From a virus, in IMG/VR virus record IMGVR_UViG_3300027749_000039, positions 96,001-160,000 of that record: a DNA stretch of 64,000 nucleotides; one strand, 5' to 3'. Positions within the stretch are counted from its first letter, which is position 1; every line of letters starts with the position of its first letter. Below are positions 33,233-63,949 of the stretch, in pieces. The notes beneath the pieces were generated by a model that was not told the DNA's origin, did no database searches, and saw only the letters and a list, made by a program, of their open reading frames with translations. The position numbers were made by a program, and so were the translations under genes.

Positions 33233-33392
33233 AAAATATACGAAAAAGTTTTTAAAAACTTTGAAAATTAAAAACTTTTTCGTATTTTTGCTTAAAATAA
33301 TAACAAAAAGAAAAAAAAGCACTTTTAGAATATAATATATATAATTATACGAAAAAAACAAAAATAATTTTTGTAAATAAAAAACTTTTTCG

Positions 33393-33400
33393 TATCTTTG
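33393..33400 (+). promoter_or_regulatory. Bacteroidota-type -7 promoter element driving tRNA operon 1
   Basis: TTTG about 20 nt upstream of TATCTTTG. Confidence 0.7.
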
Positions 33401-33631: not shown

Positions 33632-33721
33632 ATGAAACATTTCAGCTCACATAAACATTCGTTTAAATTCTGGTTTAGCAATCAGGGTTCGGTAGAGTTT
33701 TGTTTCAAAAATGCTTCATAA
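33632..33721 (+). CDS. Leader peptide 1, MKHFSSHKHSFKFWFSNQGSVEFCFKNAS (putative attenuator)
   Basis: A-rich start context; codons 2-16 are only K/H/F/S/W, matching the downstream tRNAs. Confidence 0.8.
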   Translation: MKHFSSHKHSFKFWFSNQGSVEFCFKNAS

Positions 33722-33740
33722 GAAGTTATTGAAATGAACT

Positions 33741-33781
33741 AAAAATCTCCGAACTTTATATAAAGTTCGGAGATTTTTTTT
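33741..33781 (+). terminator. Attenuator terminator 1
   Basis: AAAAATCTCCGAACTTT-ATAT-AAAGTTCGGAGATTTTTTTT. Confidence 0.9.
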
Positions 33782-33785
33782 ATAT

Positions 33786-33862: not shown

Positions 33863-33981
33863 GAAAAGGTAGATTAAACAAAGAAATTATTTAATTGAAA
33901 CTAGTATAGATTAAATAATCGTATTGATGGTAAAGGTAAGCGGTTAAGCGGAAGATAGTGGTTCGAATCCACTCCTTTTCA
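33863..33981 (+). pseudogene. Degenerate tRNA-like element
   Basis: GAAAAGG/CCTTTTC acceptor and a perfect T arm, with no recognisable D or anticodon arm. Confidence 0.45.
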
Positions 33982-34066: not shown

Positions 34067-34072
34067 CAATAA

Positions 34073-34144
34073 GGTAATCAAGCTAACTTGGTAACGTGGG
34101 AGATTCCAACCCTCCAGTCGTCGGATCGTAACCGGCTGTTCGTG
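34073..34144 (+). pseudogene. Decayed tRNA, probably Trp(CCA)
   Basis: TTCCAAC loop and T arm present; acceptor 5' strand does not pair. Confidence 0.45.
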
Positions 34145-34155
34145 CAAAATAAAAT

Positions 34156-34370: not shown

Positions 34371-35249
34371 ATGGGTGCGAATTCAAAAGAATGGACAGAA
34401 AAGGAAAAAGAAATACTTTTTAAATATTTTCCGAGTATGGGTAGTAATTATTGTTCAGAATTAACAGGAAGAACAAAAAGAGCTTGTCAAGAAATGGCAA
34501 AAAAATTAAAATTGAAGAGAGATTTAGATAAGTATGAAGATAAAGAAAAATTAGAGGAGTTAGTTAAAGGTTGTAAATCATATACAGAATGTGTAATAAA
34601 ATTGGGGTTATCTCCCAGATGTTCTGGTAATTTTCAGACTATCAAAAAATATATCACAATATATAATATAGATATTTCACATTTTGAAAATGGATTTCAA
34701 ATAGGCAACAAACCTCAAAATAAGAAAGAATTATCAGAAGTTTTAATAGAAAACTCTTTTTTTAGCAGAACTCATCTTAAAGAGAGACTATATAAAGAGG
34801 AATTAAAAAAGAAAGAATGTGAGATATGTGGAATTGGTGAAGATTGGTTTAATGGAACTAAAATAGTCCATATTTTAGACCATATAAATGGTGAGCCTTA
34901 TGATAATCGTCTTGAAAATTTAAGAATCGTTTGTCCTAATTGTAATTCAACATTAGAAACAAATTGTGTTGGGAATAAAGTTAATAAAATATATGATTCT
35001 AAAAAAGATGAATATAAAAGTGAAAAAACACATAAAAAATGTAATTGTGGTAAAATAATTTTGAAAGAAAGTAAATTTTGTTCAGAATGCAATGCCAAAA
35101 GTAAAAGAAAAATTATTAATAGACCAACATTTGAAGAATTAGTTAAGTTAATAGAAGAAAATGGTAATACTGGAACAGGTAAAATATACGGCGTTAGCGA
35201 AGCTGTCATAAGAAAATGGTTAAAACAATATAAAAATAAATTAGTATAG
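34371..35249 (+). mobile_element. Free-standing HNH homing endonuclease inside tRNA array 1
   Basis: CEIC...LDHINGEPYDNRLENLRIVCPNCNS and a C-terminal HTH. Confidence 0.88.
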
Positions 35250-35347: not shown

Positions 35348-35431
35348 GGAAAGTCCTAATTAGGAGTAGTTAGCCGTTTTGAAAACGGTGAAGGTGTAAT
35401 AGCCGTGGGGGTTCGAGTCCGTCACTTTCCG
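35348..35431 (+). tRNA. tRNA-Ser(TGA)
   Basis: GCCGT-TTTGAAA-ACGGT; long variable arm; G73. Confidence 0.82.
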
Positions 35432-35442
35432 CAAAATAAAAT

Positions 35443-35519
35443 ACGGGTTTCGTCTAATATTTAAGACACCTCCCGGCAAGGGAGTTAATGTTGTAAGGGT
35501 GAAAATCCTACAACCCGTG
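35443..35519 (+). pseudogene. Atypical tRNA-like element (loop CGGCAAG, T loop GTGAAAA)
   Basis: ACGGGTT/AACCCGT acceptor and D arm intact; anticodon and T loops non-canonical. Confidence 0.45.
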
Positions 35520-35535
35520 CAAAAAGATTAAAATT

Positions 35536-35571
35536 ATGAAACAATATAAACAGATTAAACAAAAACAATAA
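35536..35571 (+). CDS. Mini leader peptide MKQYKQIKQKQ ahead of three tRNA-Lys genes
   Basis: A-rich start context, four AAA Lys codons, alternative hairpins downstream. Confidence 0.55.
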   Translation: MKQYKQIKQKQ

Positions 35572-35846: not shown

Positions 35847-37115
35847 ATGTTAGAAATAAAATTATTTAGGCAAAATAAGGACCTAATTATAGAAGGACTT
35901 AAAAAGAAAAATTTTAAGCAACTTAATTTAGTTGATGAAATTATTAAATTGGATGAAGATTTAAGAAAATTAAAACAGGAAACTGAAAATTTAACTTCTG
36001 TTATTAATAAAAATAATAGCGAAATTGCAAGATATATTAAAACAGATGCAGTTAAGGTAGAAAATATTAAAACTCATAATATTATTTTAAATGAAAAAAT
36101 TGAGGAATTAACTAATATACTAAATCAAACTGAAAACGAGTTATTGGATAATTTAATTCAATTACCAAATCTTCCAAATCAAATTGTAGAAATAGACAAT
36201 GGTAATGAAGCAACTAATGGTAATGTTATTATAAGAGAAAACTTAACTCAGTGTACACAAGGTAAACCTCATTGGGAAGTAATTAAAGATTTAAATATAG
36301 TTAGTTTTGAACTAGGAACTAAAATTACTGGTGCTGGGTTTCCTGTTTATATCGGAAAAGGCGCAAGATTACAAAGAGCTTTAATTCAATATTTTTTAGA
36401 TTATAATACTAATGCTGGTTATACAGAATATAATATACCATTAATGGTTAATTATGATTCTGCATATGGTACAGGACAACTCCCTGATAAAGAAGGTCAA
36501 ATGTATTATGCTGAAAAGGATAATTTATACTTAATTCCAACAGCAGAAGTTCCTTTAACTAATATCTTTAGAGATGAAATAGTTAATTTGCCCATAAAAA
36601 TGACAGGACATAGTGCTTGTTTTAGAAGAGAAGCTGGCGCACATGGTAAAGAAGTAAGAGGGTTAAATCGAGTTCATCAATTTGAAAAAGTTGAAATAGT
36701 TCAATTAGTTCAACCTGATAAAAGTTATGAAGTATTGGAAGAAATGGTTTTACATGTTGAGAACTTGATAAAAAGCTTAGAATTACCATATAGAATACTT
36801 AAATTAAGTGGCACAGATATGAGTTTTGCATCTGCTTTAACTTATGACTTTGAAGTATATAGTGCGGCTCAAGACAGATGGTTAGAAGTAAGTTCTGTGA
36901 GTAATTTTGAAACTTTCCAATCTAATCGTATGAAAATTAGATTTAAAGAAGATAAAAAGAACAAATTAGTTCATACTTTAAATGGAAGTTCTTTAGCATT
37001 ACCAAGAATAATGGCTTGCTTATTAGAAAATAATCAAACACATGAAGGTATAAAAATACCAGAAGTATTAATACCGTATTACGGTGACAAATTTTTAACA
37101 AATGGAAAATTATAA
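35847..37115 (+). CDS. serS: Seryl-tRNA synthetase
   Basis: N-terminal coiled coil, LIPTAEVPL, FRREAG, RVHQFEKVE, EVSSVSN and LNGSSLALPR. Confidence 0.95.
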   Translation: MLEIKLFRQNKDLIIEGLKKKNFKQLNLVDEIIKLDEDLRKLKQETENLTSVINKNNSEIARYIKTDAVKVENIKTHNIILNEKIEELTNILNQTENELLDNLIQLPNLPNQIVEIDNGNEATNGNVIIRENLTQCTQGKPHWEVIKDLNIVSFELGTKITGAGFPVYIGKGARLQRALIQYFLDYNTNAGYTEYNIPLMVNYDSAYGTGQLPDKEGQMYYAEKDNLYLIPTAEVPLTNIFRDEIVNLPIKMTGHSACFRREAGAHGKEVRGLNRVHQFEKVEIVQLVQPDKSYEVLEEMVLHVENLIKSLELPYRILKLSGTDMSFASALTYDFEVYSAAQDRWLEVSSVSNFETFQSNRMKIRFKEDKKNKLVHTLNGSSLALPRIMACLLENNQTHEGIKIPEVLIPYYGDKFLTNGKL

Positions 37116-37347
37116 AAAATTAATAGAGAAATATAAAGTTGAAATAGTAGATTATATTATTTCTTCAAAAGACCAATTAGAAGAATACCGTAAAAAGTAT
37201 TTAGGCGCAAATGGAATTATAAAACAAGTTTATAATCAATTAAAACAAGTTCCTGCTGAAAAAAGAAAACAAGCAGGAGAATTGTTAAGAGGATTAAAAG
37301 ATTGTGCTGAAAATAAATATGAAAATTCTTTTGTTAATTCAAAATAA
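37102..37347 (+). CDS. Stand-alone PheRS alpha-subunit N-terminal tRNA-binding arm
   Basis: LEEYRKKYLGANGII...LKQVPAEKRKQAGELL matches the PheS N-terminal coiled coil; no catalytic domain follows. Confidence 0.72.
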   Translation: MENYKKLIEKYKVEIVDYIISSKDQLEEYRKKYLGANGIIKQVYNQLKQVPAEKRKQAGELLRGLKDCAENKYENSFVNSK

Positions 37348-37409: not shown

Positions 37410-37466
37410 ATGAAAACAATATCATCGTCTAGTCGCAGTAGTTTAACTTTGGAAATCCAGAGATGA
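37410..37466 (+). CDS. Leader peptide 2, MKTISSSSRSSLTLEIQR (putative attenuator)
   Basis: Block TCA TCG TCT AGT CGC AGT AGT; downstream tRNAs are Ser and Arg(ACG). Confidence 0.8.
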   Translation: MKTISSSSRSSLTLEIQR

Positions 37467-37738: not shown

Positions 37739-37744
37739 CTAATA

Positions 37745-37832
37745 GGAAAGTTGGCAGAGCGGTTTAATGCGCTGGCACTGAAGCCGGTGACTGGCAAAAG
37801 CCGGTCCGTGAGTTCGAATCTCATACTTTCTT
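37745..37832 (+). tRNA. tRNA-Ser-type with 6-nt anticodon loop ACTGAA (possibly degenerate)
   Basis: GGAAAGT acceptor, long variable arm and normal T arm; anticodon loop one nt short. Confidence 0.55.
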
Positions 37833-37836
37833 ATAT

Positions 37837-46661: not shown

Positions 46662-46760
46662 ATGAAAACTACAATAATCACAACACAAGTAATCGGCGCA
46701 TATGAAGCGGGTTATGCCTATGAGGGAACATCTCATGGAGTTGGTAAGTTATGTAGTTAA
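46662..46760 (+). CDS. Leader peptide 3, MKTTIITTQVIGAYEAGYAYEGTSHGVGKLCS (putative attenuator)
   Basis: Block GAYEAGYAYEG; downstream tRNAs are Tyr, Glu, Ala and Gly. Confidence 0.82.
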   Translation: MKTTIITTQVIGAYEAGYAYEGTSHGVGKLCS

Positions 46761-47874: not shown

Positions 47875-48510
47875 TTGCATCACACAATTTATAAAATAAC
47901 CAATTTAATAAATGGCAAAATTTATATTGGAAAACACTCAACAAATGATATTAAAGATAACTACTACGGTAGTGGGAAATTAATTAAAAGTGCTATAGAA
48001 AAATATGGTATTATTAATTTCACAAAAGAAATTTTGTTTAATTTTCAATCAGAGGAAGAAGCTTATGCCAAGGAAAAGGAAATAGTAAATGAAAGTTTCA
48101 TAAAAAGAAAAGATGTTTATAACCTTATAATAGGGGGTGATACATTTGAAGCTATTAATTCCAATTTAGAATTAAGAAAAGCTAAAAATAAGAAAGCTGC
48201 ATTAATTATGAATTCTGTAAATTGGAATAATCCAGAATTTAGAAAAAGGCAAACTGATAAAATGATATTACAAAATAAAAAATTGCATAAAGAAGGAATT
48301 CTTAAAAGTGTTGATTGGACCGGAAAGAAACATAAGGATGAAAGCAAAGAGAAAATGAGGGAAAAGGCAAAATTGAGAATAGGTGATAAAAACTCTTCAT
48401 TTGGAACTTGTTGGATATATAATGAAAATGAAAGTAAGAAAATAAAAAAAGAAGATTTAGAAAACTACTTATCTATTGGATGGATAAAAGGTAGAAAAAT
48501 TAAATTTTAA
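47875..48510 (+). mobile_element. GIY-YIG homing endonuclease inside tRNA array 3
   Basis: TIYKITNLINGKIYIGKH, YYGSG and NUMOD3-like GKKHKDESKEKM; TTG start. Confidence 0.88.
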
Positions 48511-48513
48511 TAA

Positions 48514-48596
48514 GCGAGTATAGTATAACGGAGGCGAAAGCCGTATTATGCTGGTCTTCCAAACCGGATATGAGAGTTCGATTCTCTCTACTCGCT
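48514..48596 (+). tRNA. tRNA-Gly(TCC) with GGC-GAAA-GCC hairpin inserted in the D loop
   Basis: CTGGT-CTTCCAA-ACCGG; U73. Confidence 0.8.
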
Positions 48597-48603
48597 CTAA
48601 AAT

Positions 48604-48678
48604 GGGTTGTATATTTTAATGATAGAATGCTGCGGGATTATAAAGCGGCGGTGTGAGACCAATTCTCATTATAACCCC
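48604..48678 (+). pseudogene. Degenerate tRNA (11-nt anticodon loop)
   Basis: GGGTTGT/ATAACCC acceptor; GCTGC/GCGGC stem; T loop ACCAATT. Confidence 0.45.
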
Positions 48679-49460: not shown

Positions 49461-50240
49461 ATGGACGATAACGTCCGCTCCTATGACGAAACAACTCTGT
49501 TTTGTCCTGCAGGAATGTCCCAATACAAATCCTTATTTAAGGATATTAACCACAAGGGAACAATAAGTAATATACAATCTTGCCTTCGTTTAAACGATAT
49601 GGAAGAAATAGGTGATGGGAGCCACCTATTGTATTTTAACATGATTGGATTATTCTCGTTTAGAGAAATGACTATACAAGAAGCTATTGACTTTTGGATG
49701 GAATTTCTCTATAAAATCAATTGTATTCCTGATTACATTACTATTCATCCTGATAAACCTGAATGGCGAGATTTCTATTCTAATTATAATGTTGAAATAC
49801 GTTATGATGAAGGGTGTATATGGAGTGACGGAGGTATCGGTGGCTACTGCACTGAATTTTACAAGGATGATATTGAAATAGGTAATATAGTTAATCCGTT
49901 AGGTACTTGTATTGACGCAGGGTGGGGTTTGGAACGTATAGAAATGGTTTTATATAATGAGAGAAAAACAAAAGAAGAAACCTTAATTAATACAATTATG
50001 AAAATGATTGAAAGCGGATTTACACCTACTTACAATAAACAAGGTTCTCTTTTGCGAAAACTTTTAAGAATTTGTTATTTAGAAAAAATAGAAGTTCCGC
50101 ATCAATTTTACCAAGATGAAATTTTGAGACAACAAAAAATTATAGAAAAATATAATAGAATGAAAGAGAAACCTAAGTTTAAAAATATGTCTAAGGAGTT
50201 TTGGTTTAATACTCTTGGTATTGATATAGATTTAATGTGA
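49461..50240 (+). CDS. alaS: Minimal alanyl-tRNA synthetase (aminoacylation core only)
   Basis: TTLFCPAGMSQYK, IQSCLRLND, FNMIGLFSF, WSDGGIGGYCTEF, EIGNIV and IDAGWGLERI. The frame is open upstream to 49377, so the true start may be earlier. Confidence 0.82.
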   Translation: MDDNVRSYDETTLFCPAGMSQYKSLFKDINHKGTISNIQSCLRLNDMEEIGDGSHLLYFNMIGLFSFREMTIQEAIDFWMEFLYKINCIPDYITIHPDKPEWRDFYSNYNVEIRYDEGCIWSDGGIGGYCTEFYKDDIEIGNIVNPLGTCIDAGWGLERIEMVLYNERKTKEETLINTIMKMIESGFTPTYNKQGSLLRKLLRICYLEKIEVPHQFYQDEILRQQKIIEKYNRMKEKPKFKNMSKEFWFNTLGIDIDLM

Positions 50241-59845: not shown

Positions 59846-60591
59846 TGAAACAAGTTGTGTATCTAGGCGATATTCACGGCAACTTTGATTGGTTGAAACG
59901 TGAGATAAAAAGAGTTGGCATAGGTGAAAATGAAGAAGTAGCTTATATAATCCAAGTTGGAGATTTTGGAATCGGATTTAATAATAAATCCGATTTAGAT
60001 ACTTTAAACTTATTAAATGAGTTTCTTAAATTGAGGAATATAATAATGATTGCTATTCGTGGTAATCATGACGACCCTTCATTTTTTCAAGGTAATCATA
60101 TTTATTCTAATTTGATGTTAGTGCCTGATTATACTACTATGGAAATAGATGGTAGAAACCATTTATTCGTGGGTGGTGCTATATCAATAGATAGAAAGTA
60201 TAGGCTACATAAAGATCAGATAGCTGCATCTTATGGCTCTTCACAGAAGTCATATTGGTATGATGAACTATTCTTATTAAATGAAGAAAAGTTAAAAGAT
60301 ATAACTGGTATTGATGTAGTTATATCACATACTGCTCCTGAGTGGTGCTATCCTGATAATAGAAATGGGTTTGGTCCATTTGTTGATGAATTTGCTTATG
60401 ATGATGATAAGTTATACACTGATTTGGATAAAGAACGTAAAGATGTGACTAAAATGTTCCAAATTTTAGAAAAAAATGGTAATACTATTCAGTATCATGC
60501 ATATGGTCATTTTCATTCAAGTCAAATAACTATGAATAGATATTGCAATCATTATTTATTAGGTATAAATGAGTTTAGGGAATTATATTAA
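59845..60591 (+). CDS. Calcineurin-like metallophosphoesterase
   Basis: GDIHG, VGDFG, RGNHD, SHTAP and GHFH. Confidence 0.9.
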   Translation: MKQVVYLGDIHGNFDWLKREIKRVGIGENEEVAYIIQVGDFGIGFNNKSDLDTLNLLNEFLKLRNIIMIAIRGNHDDPSFFQGNHIYSNLMLVPDYTTMEIDGRNHLFVGGAISIDRKYRLHKDQIAASYGSSQKSYWYDELFLLNEEKLKDITGIDVVISHTAPEWCYPDNRNGFGPFVDEFAYDDDKLYTDLDKERKDVTKMFQILEKNGNTIQYHAYGHFHSSQITMNRYCNHYLLGINEFRELY

Positions 60592-61370
60592 TTCCCTAAA
60601 CTCATTTTTATTTCTATATATTTGTTATACTTTCTTTTAAGACCAAAAGTAAAGTCGGAATATAACCAATTTAAAAATTTAATAGAATTTTTTCTACCAC
60701 CTATATATAGAATAGAATGTTTATTATTACCATTTATAATTCTTCTGATAGAATATTTAATACCTAAATTAATAGATATATCTTCTAAATATTTCCAATC
60801 TTGTCCGTATGTGCTTGCAAAATATATTTGAGGTGATTTATTACTGAAGTTTATACACCCATCGCCGTCCATTATTCCTCTTAGAAAATATTTAATATCT
60901 TCCTGTTTAATCTTCATTAAATTAAAATCTGGCGAGGCTGTACTTTTATTTTCATAATTAAATGACCTAAATATATTTACAATATCTTTAGAACAGTATT
61001 GGATACACGCAGATGTTTTTGTTCTGCCCTTTCTTAATCTTTCATTATAATAAAAATTTCCTAATTTTTCAAATATTGGTTTGATATCGTCTAAATCTTC
61101 TTTTAGTATTTCTATACCTATATTATTACCGACTAAATATCCATCAGACCATAATAATCCCATTATATAGGACACATAAGGATTATCAACTTTTTCAAAT
61201 GTATCTAAACTTGGGTAAATATATTTTTTATTATAACTCAATTTTAATTTTTTAGCTTTGTTTTTAACCATATCAATAGTAAAATTACTCAATATTTCAT
61301 TTATTTTAGTTGGTCCAATTTTGTGGTAGTTTTCTACCATGAATTTTATTTCGTGTTCTTTCCATTCCAT
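60588..61370 (-). mobile_element. LAGLIDADG homing endonuclease
   Basis: YIMGLLWSDG and YFLRGIMDGDG motifs. Confidence 0.88.
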
Positions 61371-61477
61371 AATTTATATATTATTTATGATATAGCCCCT
61401 AATAATGTTTACACGCAAATAAAATAAATATGAAAATAATTTTGTCAATTCAAAACTTTTTCGTACTTTTGTAATCT

Positions 61478-61675
61478 AATTAAGAACATAGAAACTAGCA
61501 TAGTGTAATAAACTATGTAAAAACTTTACATGCTCACAGAACGTTAAAATTTTATCATTATAACAGGTTACTTAATCGAAAGAAGATAATTGGTATAATG
61601 TATATCTATAAGATATAATAAAATTATAACCTTTCAATCCGAAAGGCATAGACTTAGAGTGTAAAGAGTTTCAAA
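61478..61675 (+). ncRNA. Candidate ~200-nt structured RNA with its own promoter
   Basis: Promoter at 61464-61471, no ORF, nested stems (see findings). Confidence 0.4.
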
Positions 61676-61716
61676 AATAAATCTGAAAATAATTTTGCAA
61701 ATTAAAAACTTTATTG

Positions 61717-61739
61717 TATCTTTGCAATACAATAATCAA
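61717..61739 (+). promoter_or_regulatory. Promoter/TSS region of tRNA operon 4
   Basis: TATCTTTG element; 19-nt identity to the operon 3 start. Confidence 0.72.
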
Positions 61740-61808
61740 TAAAGAAACAAATAACGATAAAAAGTCCATAGAGGAAAAAAGTAGTTTAAAAATTAAATAT
61801 ATAATATA

Positions 61809-61910
61809 ATGAAAAACATTAATAGAAATAATAATACCATAAATTTAGTCATAAATAACGTGAATACGTTATGCGTGATTAGAGGAGTTATGGGGTTAAG
61901 TCTATTATGA
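61809..61910 (+). CDS. Leader peptide 4, MKNINRNNNTINLVINNVNTLCVIRGVMGLSLL (putative attenuator)
   Basis: Codons 3-25 use only N/I/R/T/L/V/C, the specificities of the downstream array. Confidence 0.85.
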   Translation: MKNINRNNNTINLVINNVNTLCVIRGVMGLSLL

Positions 61911-61937
61911 TAATATTTCAAATATATTATAATATTT

Positions 61938-61971
61938 AATCTCAAACTCAAAAAGTTTGAGATTTTTTTTT
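61938..61971 (+). terminator. Attenuator terminator 4
   Basis: AATCTCAAACT-CAAAA-AGTTTGAGATTTTTTTTT. Confidence 0.9.
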
Positions 61972-61981
61972 ATGTTAAAAT

Positions 61982-62069
61982 GGCGCAGTGATGAAACTGG
62001 TTAGTACATGCAGGACTTAAAATCCTGTGGACAGAAATGTCCGTGTCGGTTCGACTCCGACCTGCGCTA
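61982..62069 (+). tRNA. tRNA-Leu(TAA)
   Basis: CAGGA-CTTAAAA-TCCTG; variable arm. Confidence 0.9.
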
Positions 62070-62076
62070 CAAAACT

Positions 62077-62150
62077 CGGCGGGTAGCTTAGACGGTAAAA
62101 GCACGAATCTTATAAATTCGAGATAGTGGGATCGTTACCCACCCCTCCGA
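62077..62150 (+). tRNA. tRNA-Ile(TAT)
   Basis: CGAAT-CTTATAA-ATTCG. Confidence 0.82.
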
Positions 62151-62155
62151 CAAAT

Positions 62156-62228
62156 GGTTCTATCGTACAATGGATTAGTACAAGGCTCTTCTAAAGCCTT
62201 TATGTGGGTTCGAATCCCGCTGGAACTA
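62156..62228 (+). tRNA. tRNA-Arg(TCT)
   Basis: AGGCT-CTTCTAA-AGCCT. Confidence 0.9.
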
Positions 62229-62279
62229 CAATCGTTATTAATTTTTATTAGGGAGTTCGGTTTATATAATATATAATTT

Positions 62280-63086
62280 ATGAGACATAAACAAACAGAA
62301 CAAACTAAAAAGAAGTTATCAGAAATAAGAAAAAAATGGTTAGCAGATAATCCAGAAAAACATCCATGGAAAAGAAAAGATAAATTCTTATCTAAGCCTT
62401 GTGAATTTTTCAAAAAGAAATTATTGGAAAATAATTTAACTTTTTCGGAAGAACAAAACTTACTTGAAGGAAGAGCATATTCGGTAGATGTAGTTTTTTA
62501 TGATAAAATGATTGGATTTAAAATAAATGGAAATCAACATTATAATTCAGATAAAACTCTTAAAGATTATTATAAAAAAAGGAAAGAAGAGATTGAAATT
62601 TTAGGATGGAAATTATATGATATACATTATACAAAAGTTTATAATGAAAAATTTATAGAGGAAATAATAAAATTCATAAAAGAGCAAAAGGAAATTCCAA
62701 ATTTTAATTTTGAATTTTTTATAAAAAAGGTTAAAAAAATATGTAAAGATTGTGGTAAAGAAATATCATATAATAGCATAGAAAGATGTTTAAAATGTCA
62801 TAATATATCCAGAAGAACAGAAAAATATGAAGTTAATTTAAAATATAAAATAGGTGCTAATAAAAAAGAAAAATTTATAAAAAATTGTAATTGTGGTGAA
62901 ATAATATCCATAAATTCAAATAATTGTAAGGAATGTTTTGATAAAATACAAAGAAAAATAGTTGATAGACCAAGTTTAGAAATTTTATTAGAAGAGGTTA
63001 AAGATATAGGATATAGTGCGGTTGGTAGAAAATATGGAGTTAGTGATAATTCTATAAGAAAGTGGATAAAAAATTATCAAAAATAA
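62280..63086 (+). mobile_element. Vsr/DUF559-like endonuclease with Zn fingers and HTH, inside tRNA array 4
   Basis: YSVD...GFKINGNQHY, L..LGW, CxxC pairs, and a C-terminus shared with 34371..35249. Confidence 0.75.
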
Positions 63087-63090
63087 AAAT

Positions 63091-63162
63091 TGTCGTATAG
63101 CTTAGTGGGGAAGCGTCAGCAGAAGTAGCTGAAGGGCATAGGTTCAATTCCTGTTGCGACTA
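63091..63162 (+). pseudogene. tRNA with aberrant anticodon loop AGAAGTA
   Basis: Cloverleaf intact but no U33. Confidence 0.55.
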
Positions 63163-63169
63163 CAAATAA

Positions 63170-63241
63170 GGTTCCTTAACTCAGAGGCAGAGTGCTACTT
63201 TTACATGGTAGAAGTCGGGATTTCAAAATTCCCAGGAACCA
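63170..63241 (+). tRNA. tRNA-Val(TAC)
   Basis: CTACT-TTTACAT-GGTAG. Confidence 0.85.
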
Positions 63242-63248
63242 CAAAAAT

Positions 63249-63320
63249 TGGAATGTAGCTCAGAGGCAGAGCAGGATCCTGTTAAGATCAAGGTCGAGAT
63301 ATCGTAATTCTCCATTCCAG
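63249..63320 (+). tRNA. tRNA-Asn(GTT)
   Basis: GATC-CTGTTAA-GATC; G73. Confidence 0.82.
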
Positions 63321-63325
63321 CAAAT

Positions 63326-63397
63326 AGTCTTATAGCTCAAAGGCAGAGTGCCTGTTCGACATACAGGAGGTTGCGATATCGTAATTCGCTAAGACTA
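63326..63397 (+). tRNA. tRNA-Val(GAC)
   Basis: CCTGT-TCGACAT-ACAGG. Confidence 0.8.
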
Positions 63398-63406
63398 CAA
63401 ATAAAG

Positions 63407-63480
63407 GGGCGTATGGTGAAATTGGTTTATCACGTCTGACTGTTAATCAGTTATTATAGGTTCGAGTCCTATTGTGCCCG
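63407..63480 (+). tRNA. tRNA-Asn(GTT)
   Basis: CTGA-CTGTTAA-TCAG; G73. Confidence 0.85.
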
Positions 63481-63507
63481 CTAATTAAATAAAAAAAGTA
63501 AATAATA

Positions 63508-63586
63508 CGGAACGTACCGAGTCACACTGATAATGTGGATATTCGTAAAGGTGTTGAAAATGAGATTTCAAGATTCTCCGTTCCGA
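63508..63586 (+). other. D-armless tRNA-Ile(GAT)-like RNA
   Basis: CGGAACG/CGTTCCG acceptor, CACA-CTGATAA-TGTG, T arm present; D arm replaced by an extended helix. Confidence 0.5.
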
Positions 63587-63592
63587 CAAAAT

Positions 63593-63668
63593 GCCAAATT
63601 AGTATAGCGGCGATTATACCAACCTTGTAAGTTGCGAGACACCAGTTCGAGTCTGGTATTTGGCTCCA
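63593..63668 (+). tRNA. tRNA-Thr(TGT)
   Basis: CAAC-CTTGTAA-GTTG; TCCA end. Confidence 0.88.
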
Positions 63669-63702
63669 CTACTGATCAGAATCCAGTGATTCAGATCTAA
63701 AA

Positions 63703-63778
63703 CGGACTATAGCTCATTATTGGTTAGAGCGTCACGCTGATAACGTGAAGGTGGTTGGATCGAAGCCAGCTAGTCCGA
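63703..63778 (+). tRNA. tRNA-Ile(GAT)
   Basis: TCACG-CTGATAA-CGTGA. Confidence 0.88.
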
Positions 63779-63784
63779 CAAAAT

Positions 63785-63857
63785 GCTAAAGTGTCTGAAT
63801 GGTTGAGGAACTTTCTTGGTATGAAAGATAATATCGGTTCGAATCCGTTCTTTAGCT
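63785..63857 (+). tRNA. tRNA-Thr(GGT)
   Basis: CTTTC-TTGGTAT-GAAAG. Confidence 0.85.
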
Positions 63858-63863
63858 CTTAAT

Positions 63864-63936
63864 GGCGCCTTGGTCGAGTGGTTATAGGCGCAGGTCTGCA
63901 AAACCTGATACATTGGTTCAATTCCAGTAGGCGCCT
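63864..63936 (+). tRNA. tRNA-Cys(GCA)
   Basis: CAGGT-CTGCAAA-ACCTG; U73. Confidence 0.9.
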
Positions 63937-63949
63937 CAAATTAAATAAA

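Follow-up and report, generated by a model that had tools for sequence, protein, structure and literature searches.

A putative multivalent leader-peptide attenuator in front of a twelve-gene tRNA array of a huge phage

We analysed a 64,000-nucleotide stretch of viral DNA (hereafter the window; bases 96001-160000 of the 190.6-kb IMG/VR record IMGVR_UViG_3300027749_000039) and found that a short leader open reading frame (ORF) at 61809-61910, followed by an intrinsic terminator and an array of tRNA genes, probably constitutes a ribosome-mediated, multivalent leader-peptide attenuator of transcription into a phage tRNA operon, so that operons of tRNAs and aminoacyl-tRNA synthetases (aaRS) would be transcribed on demand. 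In this element, referred to as unit D, the twelve tRNAs are probably made only when ribosomes read the codons of a dedicated leader block slowly. Computation recovered a promoter and leader ORF, a block of cognate codons, a terminator, a mutually exclusive antiterminator and a stall geometry that links them. A sequence-only reading of this DNA had already interpreted the locus as an attenuator, and our results support that interpretation, as all of the sequence-level features are present, non-random and recurring with other codon blocks elsewhere in the genome.

The record derives from freshwater and lake metagenomes, has a GC content of 27.9% and contains 46 tRNAs detected by ARAGORN. Its CheckV completeness of 31% implies a genome of several hundred kb. 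The order at the locus is promoter motif, 85 nt, leader ORF, terminator, 11 nt and tRNA array, with the following features.

61694..61724, + strand: Bacteroidota-type promoter (TTTG, 19 nt, TAnnTTTG; motif search)
61809..61910, + strand: leader ORF of 33 sense codons (ATG AAA start, TGA stop; TGA TAA at 61908-61913)
61815..61883, + strand: putative regulatory codon block, leader codons 3-25, all readable by the tRNAs of the downstream array
61855..61872, + strand: 7-bp hairpin within the codon block, belonging to a larger helix of 61832-61852 with 61875-61898
61885..61900, + strand: antiterminator 5' arm, leader codons 26-31, whose best pairing is with its own terminator arm
61936..61971, + strand: intrinsic terminator (5' arm 61938-61948, 3' arm 61954-61964, T-run to 61971; 11 bp, loop of 5)
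61982..62229, + strand: tRNA-Leu(TAA), tRNA-Ile(TAT) and tRNA-Arg(TCT) (ARAGORN; Rfam)
62280..63086, + strand: homing-endonuclease-like ORF of 268 aa inside the array (zinc ribbons, C-terminal helix-turn-helix (HTH), weak restriction-endonuclease-like match)
63091..63481, + strand: tRNA-'Leu'(AAG), Val(TAC), Asn(GTT), Val(GAC) and Asn(GTT) (ARAGORN; Rfam)
63593..63937, + strand: tRNA-Thr(TGT), Ile(GAT), Thr(GGT) and Cys(GCA) (ARAGORN; Rfam)

The leader block contains only codons readable by the array behind it

To avoid bias in the choice of leader, we took, for every terminator abutting a tRNA, the longest ATG-started ORF that ends close to it; for unit D this rule selects 61809-61910. Codons 3-25 comprise 9 Asn, 4 Ile, 3 Val, 2 Thr, 2 Leu, 2 Arg and 1 Cys, with no other amino acid, and are spelled AAC/AAT, ATT, ATA, AGA, ACC, ACG, TTA, GTC, GTG and TGC. 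All of these are readable under ordinary wobble rules by the downstream array, which holds 12 tRNA genes with 11 distinct anticodons (ARAGORN, Rfam) in the order Leu-TAA, Ile-TAT, Arg-TCT, 'Leu'-AAG, Val-TAC, Asn-GTT, Val-GAC, Asn-GTT, Thr-TGT, Ile-GAT, Thr-GGT and Cys-GCA. Array-readable codons make up 40.3% of the codon usage of the phage, and the probability of a run of 23 in a 31-codon ORF is ~7 × 10−9 with position allowed for; at the amino-acid level, the chance of the block is 0.41^23 = 1 × 10−9. Lys, the commonest filler in the genome (8.8% of codons), is missing from the block.

The codon and amino-acid content proposed for codons 3-25 in the sequence-only reading was thereby borne out. 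The same reading held that the block covers all ten anticodons of the array; ten are indeed covered, but the array has 11, the AAG tRNA at 63091-63163, for which the block contains no codon, having been missed. This 'Leu'-AAG tRNA is 73 nt long, lacks a long variable arm and has an atypical anticodon loop, as read from the sequence. Covering 10 of 11 anticodon classes is in any case no statistical support by itself (P = 0.31 given set membership): the statistical signal is the exclusivity of the block, not its anticodon coverage. Downstream of the block, CTA is present at leader codon 32. Among the matched codons of all units, rare synonyms ending in G or C (ACG, ACC, GTG, GTC, TGC) are over-used (121/389 vs. 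52.5 expected, p = 3 × 10−19), an excess that fits selection for codons that would be slow or isoacceptor-specific.

Transcription of the unit would begin at a motif which we take to be a promoter from its agreement with the Bacteroides consensus. The motif (TTTG, 18-21 nt, TAnnTTTG) occurs 17 times in the window compared with 3.5 expected, a count reached by 0/100 shuffles, with 16/17 matches on the + strand, and it is found upstream of leaders B, C and D and of the Met tRNAs. The host is presumably a member of the Bacteroidota, a phylum that we infer from the promoter motif only. A second copy of the motif lies at 61441-61471, followed by ~220 nt without a notable ORF and then by the leader-D promoter; the region 61441-61690 may represent a small RNA or a remnant.

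Terminator and antiterminator are predicted to compete for a shared arm

The terminator, also called by a terminator scan, ends 11 nt upstream of the first tRNA (Leu). Its helix is kept in eight homologous D-type leaders, in which 7 of 15 pairs have changed on both sides in a compensatory manner. Directly after the codon block, 61885-61899 pairs with 61936-61949 through 12 Watson-Crick and 2 G-U pairs with one bulged A, so that the 14-bp, one-bulge helix of the sequence-only reading was recovered at exactly that place. The duplex has an energy of −10.1 to −12.6 kcal/mol, significantly lower than that of dinucleotide shuffles (p = 0.002-0.003). Because the terminator 5' arm (61938-61948) is shared with the antiterminator helix, the two structures are computed to be mutually exclusive.

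The minimum free energy (MFE) fold of the untranslated RNA 61809-61972 (−39.3 kcal/mol, z = −4.83) contains the terminator together with a helix that ties up the antiterminator arm and resembles the 1:2 helix of trp-type attenuators. In relatives, a hairpin occupies the same place as 61855-61872 with a different sequence (alignment, by eye). This hairpin, or the larger helix to which it belongs, is a candidate pause or anti-antiterminator element. When a ribosome is masked onto leader D at equilibrium, the terminator probability drops to 0.1-0.5 when the stall is at any of codons 7-24 and stays at 1.0 for all other positions, and ribosome-placement folding puts the fold switch at codons 23-25.

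Sister units in the same genome

The genome contains at least seven units of this kind: besides that of unit D, six other arrays are preceded by the same design, in which an ATG-AAA leader is followed by a terminator and, 4-25 nt later, by tRNAs, while the codon block differs from leader to leader.

Leader A, 33632-33721: His/Phe/Ser/Lys/Trp codons; His, Trp, Phe, Ser-TGA and Lys tRNAs, SerRS and a PheRS N-terminal fragment
Leader B, 37410-37466: Ser/Arg codons; Ser-GCT, Arg-ACG, a Ser-like tRNA and Ser-GGA
Leader C, 46662-46760: Gly/Ala/Tyr/Glu codons; the tRNAs for those amino acids and an AlaRS catalytic fragment
Leader E, outside the window at genome 161034-161102 (window coordinate 65034-65102): Leu/Met/Asn codons; Leu-TAG, Leu-AAG, Leu-CAA and Met tRNAs and AsnRS
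Leader F, genome 171086: Pro/Gln/Asp codons; Asp and Pro tRNAs, then leader G with Gln tRNAs
Leader G, genome 172519: Gln codons; three Gln tRNAs and GlnRS

Run probabilities of leaders A, B, C and G range from 1 × 10−6 to 1 × 10−7. Among the 61 terminator-like sites of the genome, the combination of an ATG-AAA leader and a terminator was found only 4-25 nt before tRNA arrays. The aaRS identities in units A, C, E and G were assigned with Pfam and NCBIfam equivalog models, with scores above the cut-offs. These genes lie at the unit ends behind leaders with cognate codons (SerRS, 35847-37115; PheRS N-terminal fragment of 81 aa, 37102-37347; AlaRS catalytic fragment of 259 aa, 49461-50240; and, in genome coordinates, AsnRS, 162908-164098, and GlnRS, 172882-174471).

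Conservation and covariation among relatives

The same bank of units is present in LR745206.1 (635 kb) and LR756502.1 (642 kb), both uncultured huge phages, and in five IMG/VR contigs of 263-508 kb, with homologous as well as non-homologous leaders, giving 36 units in eight records. In each of the seven genomes with at least four units, the true pairing of leaders to arrays was the unique maximum among all permutations (p = 1/720 in three genomes and 1/24 in four). The content of leaders also covaries with that of arrays. Unit E here splits off the Met, Leu-CAA and Leu-TAG tRNAs with a Leu/Met leader of its own, and the D block contains no Met; in the relatives G001, G004, G005 and LR745206.1, the Met tRNA is still in the D array and the D leaders carry 2-4 Met codons. 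Similarly, array D here includes Ile-TAT and its leader has two ATA codons, while in five relatives this tRNA resides in the Gly/Ala arrays, whose leaders contain ATA.

The antiterminator arm is always located at the 3' end of the leader ORF, directly after the codon block. Its helix reached p < 0.05 against shuffles in 18/37 units (Fisher combined p = 4 × 10−21, homologous units not being independent). Since the antiterminator arms of the window and G001 were out of register in a MAFFT alignment of the eight D-type leaders, the helix was assessed with a matrix of cross-pairing energies. Mean antiterminator energy was −11.6 kcal/mol with the leader's own terminator arm vs. −7.6 with foreign arms (G001, −18.5 vs. 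−4.6 to −11.3; window leader, −12.6 vs. −8.4 to −11.0). The D-type homologues fall into three terminator sequence classes, each matched by its own arm and not by those of the others, which we read as covariation of the alternative helix.

In equilibrium folding with a masked ribosome, the terminator always won outside leaders D and E of the present genome, and a co-transcriptional measure was adopted for this reason: the nascent RNA, ending at the terminator loop, was folded repeatedly while a ribosome footprint was moved along the leader codon by codon. For every A-site position up to the end of the matched block, the terminator 5' arm was predicted to be held in other pairing (P 0.6-0.99); its release was predicted a median of 3 codons past the block (34 units), within 0 to +5 codons in 82% of units. 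No random block placement out of 20,000 equalled the real fold-switch geometry, and matched codons were 6.3-fold enriched in the 'on' zone (p = 4 × 10−35).

Megablast of 24 kb against a phage collection gave tRNA-sized matches only, and a SerRS-based search of viral contigs found no relative. A degenerate DNA pattern of the D leader matched 89 stretches, of which only four were real homologues.

Proposed mechanism and alternative explanations

The anatomy, the statistics, the conservation and the covariation of leader content and helices are computed directly from the DNA; what we infer from them is that the leader is translated, that its translation is coupled to transcription, which way the switch works and which physiological signal it senses. 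Host RNA polymerase would start at the Bacteroidota-type promoter (61694-61724) and transcribe the leader, and a ribosome would translate the 33-codon ORF. Should aminoacyl-tRNA be scarce for any of the Asn, Ile, Arg, Thr, Leu, Val or Cys codons of the block, the ribosome would linger between codon 3 and about codon 24, leaving 61885-61900 free to pair with 61936-61949 on its emergence; the terminator would then not form, and transcription would read through into the 12 tRNAs. With fast decoding, the ribosome would advance over the antiterminator arm as far as the stop codon, so that the terminator (61938-61964) with its U-tract would form, and transcription would stop 11 nt before the first tRNA. 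The block would act as an OR gate over the isoacceptors supplied by the array, and the circuit would impose negative feedback on the phage's own tRNA supply. The sensed quantity would be aminoacyl-tRNA availability at the ribosome, and the presence of both tRNAs and synthetases behind leaders fits the sensing of this quantity.

Several observations weigh against this interpretation. The leader lacks a Shine-Dalgarno sequence, and initiation as well as transcription-translation coupling in the host are assumed. Owing to common descent among homologous leaders, the 36 units do not amount to that many independent trials, and, taken singly, the B, C and G types of antiterminator helix do not reach significance. 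The match between leader and array is also imperfect in places: the D leaders of G002 and G003 have Met codons with no Met tRNA detected in the D array, and several D leaders have a Cys codon with no Cys tRNA detected in the array. Moreover, at thermodynamic equilibrium the terminator wins in most units, so the model depends on kinetic, co-transcriptional folding. Truncated transcripts without a ribosome also sequester the terminator arm ('none' 0.2-0.99), whereas the full-length MFE structure instead gives the terminator and the 1:2-type helix, so that the folds disagree on the default state without translation.

A broader interpretation, which we regard as possible but doubtful, is that the bank as a whole is a genome-wide sensor of decoding capacity, operating isoacceptor by isoacceptor and switching on the matching tRNA/aaRS operon only when decoding fails. 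The over-used rare codons ending in G or C would then probe wobble reading, and failure could arise from a host tRNA pool unfit for a 28%-GC genome or from host tRNAs degraded or cleaved by anticodon-nuclease defences. If tRNA cleavage by defences is the trigger, the bank would amount to an inducible counter-defence rather than to constitutive codon compensation.

It is unlikely, in our view, that the leaders are classical sensors of amino-acid starvation which report charging level, as those of ilv, thr and pheST do, with the synthetases as the regulated products and the tRNAs as passengers. Four sister units do carry cognate aaRS genes, and some codons match the enzyme alone, such as the five Asn codons of leader E (AsnRS without an Asn tRNA) and the AGC Ser codons of leader A (SerRS). 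Unit D, however, has no aaRS, its two downstream ORFs match no Pfam family, and units B and F carry tRNAs only. Extra tRNA does not relieve amino-acid starvation, and codon choice tracks anticodons rather than just amino acids, ATA, for example, appearing only where Ile-TAT is in the array.

Slightly less credible still is a translation-gated timer with the opposite default, in which the antiterminator would form and the array would be read in the absence of a ribosome, while any translation of the leader would shut the unit off. The codon match would then only set the speed of shut-off, or would reflect mutational or codon-usage drift shared with neighbouring sequence. The ribosome-free co-transcriptional folds, which already sequester the terminator 5' arm in many units, are in line with such a timer, but it accounts neither for the match between each block and the array behind it nor for the coincidence of the block end with the fold-switch point, and the full RNA of leader D folds into the terminator and the helix tying up the antiterminator arm. 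Finally, although AT-rich genomes are full of short Asn/Ile/Lys-rich ORFs, the idea that 61809-61910 is a small protein or a spurious ORF matching the array by chance, with the hairpin an ordinary terminator or insulator of the upstream unit, is highly improbable given the run probabilities here (~7 × 10−9) and at four other leaders (1 × 10−6 to 1 × 10−7), the missing Lys, the unique best permutation in seven genomes, and a terminator that lies downstream of a promoter and 11 nt before tRNAs rather than at the 3' end of a gene.

Other features of the tRNA arrays and leaders

The ORF at 62280-63086 had Pfam matches that were all under the curated cut-offs, and a search of it against NCBIfam gave no match. 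It belongs to a set of homing-endonuclease-like ORFs in or beside the tRNA arrays (34371-35249, 47875-48510, 62280-63086, 60588-61370 on the − strand, and genome 161300-162090), which comprise HNH, GIY-YIG-like, zinc-ribbon/HTH and LAGLIDADG types, with paralogous ORFs inside other arrays. The arrays also contain tRNA-like elements with large insertions or degenerate arms (33863-33981, 34070-34150, 35444-35522, 48514-48596, 48605-48677 and ~63508-63590), of which 48514-48596 reads as Gly-TCC with an expanded D arm; 63500-63603 shares 87% identity with LR745206.1. A good Ser-TGA tRNA at 35348-35432 was missed by ARAGORN with default settings. Relaxed settings returned hundreds of false tRNAs and were used only for named gaps.

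A class-II tRNA with a long variable arm (37744-37833), located among Ser tRNAs whose leader carries TCA and TCG codons, has an anticodon loop of 8 nt (or 6), and ARAGORN assigned it the four-base anticodon 'ctga'; it could be an odd Ser-UGA tRNA or a quadruplet/frameshift decoder. An 11-codon ORF at 35536-35571, before three Lys tRNAs, contains four Lys codons (codon 2 counted) and four Gln codons; it was not counted as an attenuator, its hairpin being weak and without a U-tract. At 33260-33400, a promoter motif and a 5' untranslated region like those of leaders B and F, with ATA in place of ATG, are followed by a second promoter feeding two tRNA-CAT genes directly, and the region looks like a decayed leader. 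These two CAT tRNAs are the only array members upstream of an attenuator.

Leader E stops at TAG, and the phage encodes an amber-suppressor-type tRNA-CUA (genome 54412-54485). Speculatively, if this TAG were read through, the next stop would lie 15 nt downstream, no more than ~8 nt from the terminator stem, where a terminating ribosome could mask the stem. Such read-through might, equally speculatively, link the recoding state to tRNA expression.

Implications for phage tRNA supply

The transcription of tRNA genes is a textbook case of control at the promoter level, by growth rate and the stringent response, and we know of no description of feedback from decoding itself onto tRNA transcription. 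A full-text literature search did not find leader-peptide attenuation of tRNA genes in phages or in cells, although absence there is not proof of absence. The reasons why phages carry tRNAs have been debated for decades, the main ideas being codon compensation and escape from tRNA-targeting defences (e.g., PMC10264068, PMC11464382). If our interpretation is correct, tRNA supply in these phages is regulated according to demand, and the leaders would list the codons that are limiting from the phage's own 'point of view'. The leader would also be a compact natural part reporting the availability of chosen tRNAs. The design occurs in at least eight huge phages with Bacteroidota-type promoters, and a partial check suggests that it extends to a cultured Caulobacter phage, making it directly testable.

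Comparison with known attenuation systems

T-box elements couple aaRS and related genes to a specific tRNA state through a choice between terminator and antiterminator, as proposed here. A T-box, however, binds uncharged tRNA directly and without translation, via a specifier codon and the T-box sequence, whereas the phage unit has a multi-codon ORF. Rfam gave no passing match to a T-box or to an amino-acid leader family (His, Leu, Thr, Trp or Phe) in the window or in 61690-61985; in the window only tRNA models passed the gathering score, and in 61690-61985 nothing was better than E = 5. A sub-threshold Phe_leader match at 33710-33783 (24 bits vs. a cut-off of 55) covers only a terminator.

A possible counterpart exists in the Caulobacter phage phiCbK (JX100813.1, 46500-53500), in which a rho-independent terminator, annotated at 49745-49769, lies between the 45-aa gp083 and tRNAs for Pro, Lys, Leu, Ala and Ser. 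Annotated as a 'hypothetical protein', gp083 is rich in just these five amino acids (one unit, superficial check). A quick scan of two further annotated terminators before other tRNA blocks of phiCbK gave no clear leader. The sequences and host phylum of the two phages are unrelated, as are their GC contents (62% in phiCbK vs. 28%).

The E. coli pheST operon, with its pheM leader, uses leader-peptide attenuation of the PheRS gene to sense Phe-tRNA availability. The sister units that carry SerRS, AsnRS, GlnRS and AlaRS/PheRS fragments behind cognate codons are similar to it, but pheM is monovalent and controls the synthetase only, with no tRNA gene behind it.

Unit D also resembles the ilvGMEDA leader (Ile/Val/Leu) and the thr leader (Thr/Ile), multivalent leader-peptide attenuators of enterobacterial amino-acid operons in which a stalled ribosome selects the antiterminator. 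With these, it has in common a short leader ORF, a codon block for several amino acids, an intrinsic terminator placed ahead of the first gene and a competing helix that involves the terminator 5' arm. In contrast to ilv and thr, the phage block samples seven amino acids and ten anticodons, the bank of units partitions the phage tRNA set, the presumed Bacteroidota host goes with a leader that has no Shine-Dalgarno sequence, and no sequence or Rfam relationship connects them. The controlled genes differ as well, being biosynthetic enzymes in ilv and thr and tRNAs, with aaRS in sister units, in the phage. To our knowledge, the genes controlled by described leader-peptide attenuators are all amino-acid biosynthesis or aaRS genes, a class from which unit D departs with its 12 tRNAs and an endonuclease-like ORF. 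Judged by its architecture, unit D is thus a putative attenuator of the ilv/thr/pheST kind, and what sets it apart is that the controlled genes are tRNA genes.

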